Origin: Escherichia coli
GTDB taxonomy: Bacteria > Pseudomonadota > Gammaproteobacteria > Enterobacterales > Enterobacteriaceae
Assembly: GCF_003334355.1 (NCBI RefSeq)
Contig: NZ_QOWP01000006.1
Reading direction: 5' to 3' (one strand)
Length of the DNA stretch: 64,000 nt
The translations under genes were made by a program, and so were the position numbers. This document shows positions 52,742 through 53,062 of the stretch, in pieces. Numbering within the stretch: position 1 is the stretch's first letter; every line of letters begins with the position of its first letter. Under the pieces are notes generated by a model, which saw nothing but the letters and a program-made list of their open reading frames with translations, searched no databases and had not been told where the DNA came from.

Positions 52742-53062
52742 TCAGGCGGCTTTCTTGAGGCAGGCACTCATAAACTTATTACGATCATCACCTTTCAGAG
52801 ATTGTTGCGTTGCTTGATTATTACATTCGCGCATCTTTTGCTGCTGTGGCGTCAAACTTTTTTCACCAGGCGCAGACTTGCTGTTCTTCAGGCAATCACT
52901 CATGTAGGTCTTACGAGCATCCCCTTTCAACGCCTGCGCCGTCGCCTGCTGATTACAGGAGGTCATACGCTGTTGTTGCGGGGTTAAGGTTCTCTCGGCA
53001 GCGCCGACGGTGGTTAAAAAAACCAGTCCGAAAAGCAAGGTAACCAGTAATGTTATTTTCAT
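52742..53062 (-). CDS. psiF: phosphate starvation-inducible protein PsiF
   Basis: Internal ATG gives 106 aa MKITLLVTLLFGLVFLTTVGAAE; two tandem ~42-aa repeats; downstream of phoA. Confidence 0.88.
   Translation of the reverse strand: MKITLLVTLLFGLVFLTTVGAAERTLTPQQQRMTSCNQQATAQALKGDARKTYMSDCLKNSKSAPGEKSLTPQQQKMRECNNQATQQSLKGDDRNKFMSACLKKAA

Follow-up and report, generated by a model that had tools for sequence, protein, structure and literature searches.

What is the role of psiF, which shares an operon with phoA, and does the repeated layout of its product help to reveal it? We addressed the question in Escherichia coli with a 64,000-nt stretch of contig NZ_QOWP01000006.1 (assembly GCF_003334355.1), hereafter the window, in which psiF lies on the minus strand. 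An earlier reading of the DNA (the original prediction) had described the exported PsiF protein as two tandem copies of a Cys-containing module arising from an internal duplication, and its function as poorly defined. Our analyses make it probable, taken as a whole, that psiF is the PhoB-activated second gene of the operon, that it is expressed by read-through, and that it encodes an exported protein of two stapled hairpin modules, belonging to a recombining array and a candidate binder of an anionic ligand. PsiF is among the few strongly PhoB-induced genes without an assigned activity, and the hypotheses about it are narrowed by its predicted autonomous hairpins, the changes in array copy number, the occurrence of psiF without phoA and a single-module allele in Salmonella.

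The two-module repeat and its anatomy

The analysis of the repeat draws on the following features of the window:

52742..53062, minus strand: psiF coding sequence, 106 codons plus stop, assigned from its translation, the NF008560 match, the RefSeq annotation of the nearest genome and identity to PSIF_ECOLI.
52997..53062, minus strand: signal peptide, residues 1-21/22, MKITLLVTLLFGLVFLTTVGA with A following the cleavage point, read from the sequence.
52865..52996, minus strand: module 1 and linker, residues 23-66, with a PF07769 core at 27-59 (E=7e-18), Cys36 and Cys57.
52745..52864, minus strand: module 2, residues 67-106, with a PF07769 core at 71-103 (E=1.6e-15), Cys80 and Cys101.
53070..53076, minus strand: Shine-Dalgarno-like AGAGGGA, 7 nt ahead of the psiF ATG, taken directly from the DNA letters.

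The 106-aa PsiF protein (MKITLLVTLLFGLVFLTTVGAAERTLTPQQQRMTSCNQQATAQALKGDARKTYMSDCLKNSKSAPGEKSLTPQQQKMRECNNQATQQSLKGDDRNKFMSACLKKAA, translated from 52742..53062, minus strand) does contain the same module twice: both of the stretches quoted in the original prediction are present, and BLASTP aligned the two halves without gaps, with 24/37 identical and 29/37 positive residues (E=8e-18). The self-alignment that had been proposed as a check was significant, with a Smith-Waterman score of 131; none of 20,000 composition-preserving shuffles, which gave 21.5±4.5 with a maximum of 50, reached this value (z=24.6). The copies are indeed in tandem, but the module layout had to be corrected, because the dipeptide PG (residues 65-66) had been omitted between the quoted stretches; the modules recur every 44 residues (E23 to E67), with a conserved core of about 34-37 residues. 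The claim of an internal duplication is upheld by the self-alignment, by the two PF07769 matches and by relatives with one, three, four or five copies. Gln, Lys and Thr are abundant in PsiF, as would be expected if the repeat were a chance or compositional effect in a Q/K-rich low-complexity protein. This explanation is ruled out by the shuffles (observed score of 131 against a maximum of 50), by the BLASTP E value, which was obtained with compositional adjustment, and by the matches of an independent profile hidden Markov model (PF07769) to both copies; the module was, moreover, found again in 1204 representative clusters of relatives. At the DNA level, modules 1 and 2 are identical at 72/111 positions (65%), with 30/37, 27/37 and 15/37 identities at codon positions 1, 2 and 3, respectively, and the sharing of 15/37 third positions indicates that the duplication is old, rather than a recent slip.

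The repeat is already catalogued: a named Pfam family, PF07769 ('psiF repeat'), is defined by it and matched PsiF twice, each time spanning positions 2-34 of the 34-position model. The repeat is therefore ordinary and in itself adds nothing new, in a gene that is core and well annotated. The protein of the window has the same sequence as UniProt PSIF_ECOLI, the founding member of the PsiF family, and it matched the NCBIfam equivalog NF008560 (PsiF) with 234.5 bits (cutoff 165) over residues 1-106 of 106. A further candidate, TIGR04453 'Lepto_8Cys', was rejected: its score of 21.5 bits is below the cutoff (34), and it overlaps the signal peptide. The 3.4-kb region around psiF was matched in 5426/5426 complete E. 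coli genomes (best match 99.9%), with psiF present in 5423 of these genomes and full-length in 5422, and psiF is a core E. coli gene. The lone disrupted copy belongs to TW10690 (NZ_CP127034.1; L087 2501..3887), in which an IS5-family transposase is inserted about 64% of the way into the gene. We also noted an alternative in-frame ATG six codons upstream (53063..53080, minus strand; MKRDGA-MKITLL…), which would give a 112-aa open reading frame (ORF); the 106-aa start is favoured over it by a better Shine-Dalgarno sequence and a canonical signal-peptide n-region.

The consensus of 292 diverse modules was xxLTPQQx[KR]MxxCNxxAxx[KQ]xLKGDxR[K]xFMSxCL[KS], with both Cys residues 100% conserved, in agreement with the earlier claim of two conserved Cys per module. 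The Arg corresponding to R50 was conserved in 98% of these modules, the Ala, Gly and Leu residues in 97%, the two Met residues in 90-93% and the Phe in 90%. Both modules of PsiF have a C-x20-C spacing (C36/C57 and C80/C101); this spacing was found in 186/223 modules of the family and an x18 spacing, with a loop two residues shorter, in 32/223. Exactly two Cys residues were present in 298/303 modules, and additional Cys residues beyond the leader were seen in almost no relative. A structure prediction, one of the checks that had been proposed, gave two separate hairpins: with an alignment of 62 sequences, AlphaFold2 placed helices at 28-42 and 47-63 in module 1 and at 72-86 and 91-104 in module 2 (predicted local distance difference test, pLDDT, >90), joined by an inter-module linker of pLDDT ~58 (predicted template modelling score 0.41). 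AFDB models of clear PsiF homologues superposed with a high root-mean-square deviation, indicating that the orientation between the modules varies. Each module (about 36 residues) is thus predicted to fold on its own as a helix-turn-helix hairpin, and the flexible linker would string the two together like beads.

In every helix, one invariant Cys lies three residues past a conserved Met (an M-x-x-C face). The periplasm of E. coli is an oxidising compartment, in which the paired Cys residues of exported proteins are normally oxidised by DsbA. From this environment, the invariant Cys pairs and the relatives with one, three and five modules, we infer that an intramodule disulfide staples each hairpin; the odd module counts favour pairing inside the module. 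This would be in keeping with the two disulfide-stabilised periplasmic units that the original prediction raised as a possibility. Searches of the literature for PsiF together with DsbA or disulfide evidence returned only incidental mentions in gene lists and no redox-proteomics report. Export is suggested by a leader with the n-region MK, a hydrophobic core and a VGA/GAA small-residue cleavage motif; a hydrophobic leader precedes module 1 in 132/134 full-length relatives. With a leader that lacks a lipobox and finishes in VGA-A, PsiF is probably a soluble periplasmic protein. The mature protein (9.5 kDa) has a pI of 9.7. Across the family, modules have a mean net charge of +3.8±1.8, with positive values in 96% of them, and each PsiF module presents the invariant Arg and a conserved Lys at the N-terminus of helix 2.

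Relatives and copy number of the array

The relatives comprised 1204 representative clusters (50% identity, E<=1e-3), and modules were counted in the best 150 of them. Two modules were found in 106 proteins, three in 31, four in one, five in one and a single module in 11. The search for single-module homologues that the original prediction had recommended was successful in one case: 10/11 of these one-module entries were frameshifted or truncated fragments, and the sole clean one-module protein among the best 150 was a 62-aa PsiF from Salmonella enterica. This allele (L002 3001..3189, also in L003-L005) consists of a signal peptide and one hybrid module, sits at the orthologous iraP-psiF-adrA-proC locus and corresponds to an exact 132-bp (44-codon) in-frame deletion, the junction of which lies in ACGCCGCAACAGCAG, common to both repeats. 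It is rare, being present in 8-16 contigs. A module-profile search of a set of 5.8 billion proteins yielded no ancient single-module members among the matches listed, all of which were 61-77 aa long and proved to be two-module proteins.

These short entries (P0151-P0269) have gene calls that begin at a conserved internal Met of module 1 (…QQxKM|KxCN…), with the signal peptide missing, which gives them the look of one-and-a-half-module proteins. Such start-codon or fragment artefacts are numerous and systematic among public 'PsiF' entries, and module counts based on length would mislead. A subgroup of metagenomic origin (P0089, P0112, P0116 and P0139) has 2-3 PsiF modules followed by an Ala/Pro/Thr-rich linker and a conserved C-terminal domain of ~55 residues with two more Cys (CGxDxVVWVNxxSxIYHxxxxxxYGKTKxGAYMCExDA; P0089 at L006 222..1097), for which Pfam gave no match. 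The contigs carrying the domain fusions and the five-module relatives were too short for their gene neighbourhood to be read.

In all of 80 species-representative loci (75 from Enterobacterales and 5 from Pseudomonas), obtained from a narrow module alignment, psiF has two modules. Across Enterobacterales, modules at the same position shared more identity (0.78) than modules at different positions (0.62), and this held for 98% of pairs, indicating that two-copy psiF is older than Enterobacterales. Family-wide, the positional signal was seen in 82% of pairs at >=70% identity and in ~50% of those below 60% identity, and module identity was higher within proteins (0.60) than between them (0.51-0.54). 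A single ancient duplication with strict orthology of module 1 throughout the family was considered, but it has support in close relatives only, the positional signal decaying to 50:50 at greater distance. The fading of the signal at long range could equally stem from saturation, homogenisation or repeated re-duplication. In several three-module proteins, modules 2 and 3 share 0.8-0.9 identity, indicating that units are still gained, as well as lost. The array probably gains and loses units by recombination between repeats, giving one to five copies across the family.

Transcription of psiF and its linkage to phoA

The gene order at the locus in RefSeq, for the nearest genome, is proC / adrA / psiF / phoA / iraP, and the following features of the window bear on transcription:

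53181..54596, minus strand: phoA (alkaline phosphatase), the upstream gene of the operon, from the ORF list and a near-identical RefSeq genome.
54659..54676, minus strand: Pho box CTGTCATAAAGTTGTCAC upstream of phoA, a unique exact match in the window.
53136..53175, minus strand: terminator-like hairpin followed by U7, with 13 pairs (8 G-C), directly past the phoA stop and 74 nt before psiF, from a terminator scan.
52698..52725, minus strand: GAAA-loop hairpin of 12 bp with a weak U tract (AAAUUUCAU), after the psiF stop, from RNA folding.

The Pho box upstream of phoA is a perfect copy of the classical site and scored 12/14 on two CTGTCAT half-sites; of 400 random 300-nt windows, 2 scored 12 or higher. 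The 118-nt spacer between phoA and psiF gave no promoter-like site. RNA folding yielded -45.9 kcal/mol (z=-3.5) for the 123-nt phoA-psiF intergenic region, with its strong hairpin, and -28 kcal/mol (z=-4.9) for the weaker hairpin after psiF. In published work, phoA-psiF is named as an operon with a PhoB chromatin immunoprecipitation sequencing (ChIP-seq) site upstream and both genes activated (PMC10294691). The RNA values for the wild type and the phoB deletion in Table S1 of that study are ~310,000 and 1,550 for phoA, ~32,600 and 755 for psiF, and ~455 and 65 for yaiC/adrA. In low phosphate, psiF was 5.4 log2-fold above the phoB deletion, and yaiC/adrA was 2.8 log2-fold PhoB-dependent (PMC10294691). 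In the phoB deletion, the basal level of psiF, per unit length, exceeds that of phoA. The psiF RNA thus amounts to ~10% of the phoA value, yet is PhoB-dependent, which fits expression of psiF by partial read-through of the hairpin after phoA. Transcription would start at the Pho box, part of it would pass the terminator-like hairpin into psiF, and a little would continue into adrA, the transcript of which phosphate starvation apparently raises ~7-fold by read-through.

In the window, adrA/dgcC itself (diguanylate cyclase; 51525..52640, minus strand), downstream of psiF, carries a premature stop at base 51980, where codon 221 is TGA and that of the closest genome, NZ_CP067245.1, is CGA. Because of the stop, the gene is divided in two, with 220 aa in the MASE2 part and 145 aa in a separate GGDEF ORF. 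This single-nucleotide polymorphism and a second one at 51676 (Pro to Leu) are the only two differences from NZ_CP067245.1 between 51400 and 54800.

Across the 80 loci, phoA lies immediately upstream of psiF in 48 and is present as short remnants in two (L056 and L063). Adjacent phoA is absent from 25 Enterobacterales loci and from 5/5 Pseudomonas loci, with two-module psiF intact. The phoA-less taxa include Salmonella, the Enterobacter cloacae/hormaechei group, Buttiauxella, Pluralibacter, Siccibacter, Superficieibacter, Atlantibacter and others. Strong Pho-box-like sites were found upstream of phoA-less psiF in Superficieibacter (13-14/14) and in the E. cloacae group and Leclercia (11-12/14). 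Expression of psiF by Salmonella Typhi in human blood has been reported (PMC3236720). This expression and the maintenance of psiF without adjacent phoA indicate that PsiF is not an accessory specific to PhoA.

In loci L023, L031, L033-L037, L039-L042, L049, L050, L054, L058, L062, L064-L066, L068, L069, L072, L074, L075 and L081, iraP is followed directly by psiF, without phoA. The Salmonella spacer (L002 ~2890-2930) still includes a sequence that, judged by eye, resembles part of the E. coli phoA terminator (its 3' half) and the segment beyond, and this similarity suggests that phoA was lost from Salmonella rather than never present. In Pseudomonas, psiF is followed by a conserved gene for a 337-aa AI-2E-family transporter-like protein (PF01594, E=1e-8; L079 4339..5352 and L082 4351..5364), then by a 460-aa ORF with no NCBIfam match, and then by cbpA; an AraC-type regulator is also among the neighbours.

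Candidate functions and structural analogues

By the literature searched, the original prediction was right to call the function poorly defined. Overexpression of psiF has been linked to persister resuscitation or persistence (bioRxiv 2021.04.10.439273), and PsiF is less abundant in a Salmonella cpxR mutant (PMC8396259). We tentatively propose that PsiF acts in the periplasm as a cationic, multivalent protein that binds an anionic ligand. Its modules would be equivalent, strongly cationic units binding an anionic, probably phosphate-bearing, ligand of the periplasm or envelope, with an affinity that would rise through tandem repetition, and this role would be independent of PhoA. The proposal is based on the apparent equivalence and variable number of the modules, from their positive charge and from the Arg and Lys residues at the N-terminus of helix 2. 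It is more doubtful that the whole PsiF-repeat family consists of interchangeable, copy-variable (1-5), stapled cationic hairpins acting as PhoA-independent multivalent binders of a phosphate-bearing polyanion, which could be polyphosphate, extracellular nucleic acid, or the head groups of lipopolysaccharide or phospholipids. If this were true, a 35-year-old Pho-regulon orphan would gain a defined biochemical role, and the one-module Salmonella allele and the relatives with 3-5 modules would constitute a natural avidity series.

Several observations weigh against this account. The binder role is read solely from charge, conservation pattern and multivalency, and our confidence in it is low. 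We know of no ligand, partner or loss-of-function phenotype of PsiF, the searched literature gives expression data and overexpression phenotypes only, and the gene neighbourhood outside Enterobacterales provided no functional hint. In Salmonella, Buttiauxella and Pseudomonas, no Pho box above background was found within 300 bp of psiF, and Pho control of psiF may not be universal. The loop at 43-46 in the AlphaFold2 model leaves C36 and C57 off mirror positions, so the putative disulfide would need staggered helices.

Three other explanations were considered, each of which is less likely than an anionic binder. The conserved Cys and Met residues might constitute a soft-metal site, such as one for Cu(I) or Zn(II), rather than a disulfide, making PsiF a small periplasmic metal buffer or metallochaperone: M33/C36, M54/C57 and their equivalents in module 2 are 90-100% conserved, three residues apart and on one helical face, and PhoA, the product of the upstream gene, is a Zn/Mg enzyme. 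An H2O2-resistance ASKA overexpression screen in which psiF and phoA were both among the matches (PMC8228696) also speaks for this possibility. However, the conserved Met, Ala, Phe and Leu residues fit the hydrophobic core of a hairpin just as well, the modules have no conserved His or Asp ligands, and psiF is retained where phoA is absent. The oxidation of paired Cys residues by DsbA in the periplasm likewise argues for a disulfide, and we consider a metal site unlikely.

A dedicated accessory of PhoA, acting in its folding, disulfide formation, metal loading or regulation, would explain the joint operon. PhoA itself requires two disulfides; psiF lies directly downstream of phoA in 48/80 loci, and the two genes are co-induced by PhoB (PMC10294691). 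Against it stand the 25 Enterobacterales and five Pseudomonas loci that keep two-module psiF without adjacent phoA, the Pho-box-like sites that several phoA-less lineages retain for psiF alone, and the expression of psiF in human blood by S. Typhi, from a genus without phoA at the locus (PMC3236720). The terminator-like hairpin, moreover, partly uncouples the two genes. A PhoA accessory thus appears quite improbable. The least likely of the three is that PsiF works like the small Tim proteins, as a small holdase or chaperone of the periplasm that needs no ATP, and an anionic binder remains our preferred, if tentative, proposal.

Comparison with solved structures identified none related to PsiF, and the nearest were weak, non-significant neighbours with scores at noise level. 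All of these neighbours come from oxidising compartments and are helical hairpins stapled by disulfides. They are the plant alpha-hairpinins (luffin P1, vicilin-buried peptides and vicilin leader peptides) and, from the mitochondrial intermembrane space, the small Tim proteins (Tim8/9/10/13), with a hairpin architecture like that predicted for PsiF. However, both are defined by a twin CX3C motif, with two Cys per helix and two disulfides, whereas PsiF has one Cys per helix. The resemblance of PsiF to the alpha-hairpinins and small Tims is an architectural analogy rather than membership of either family.
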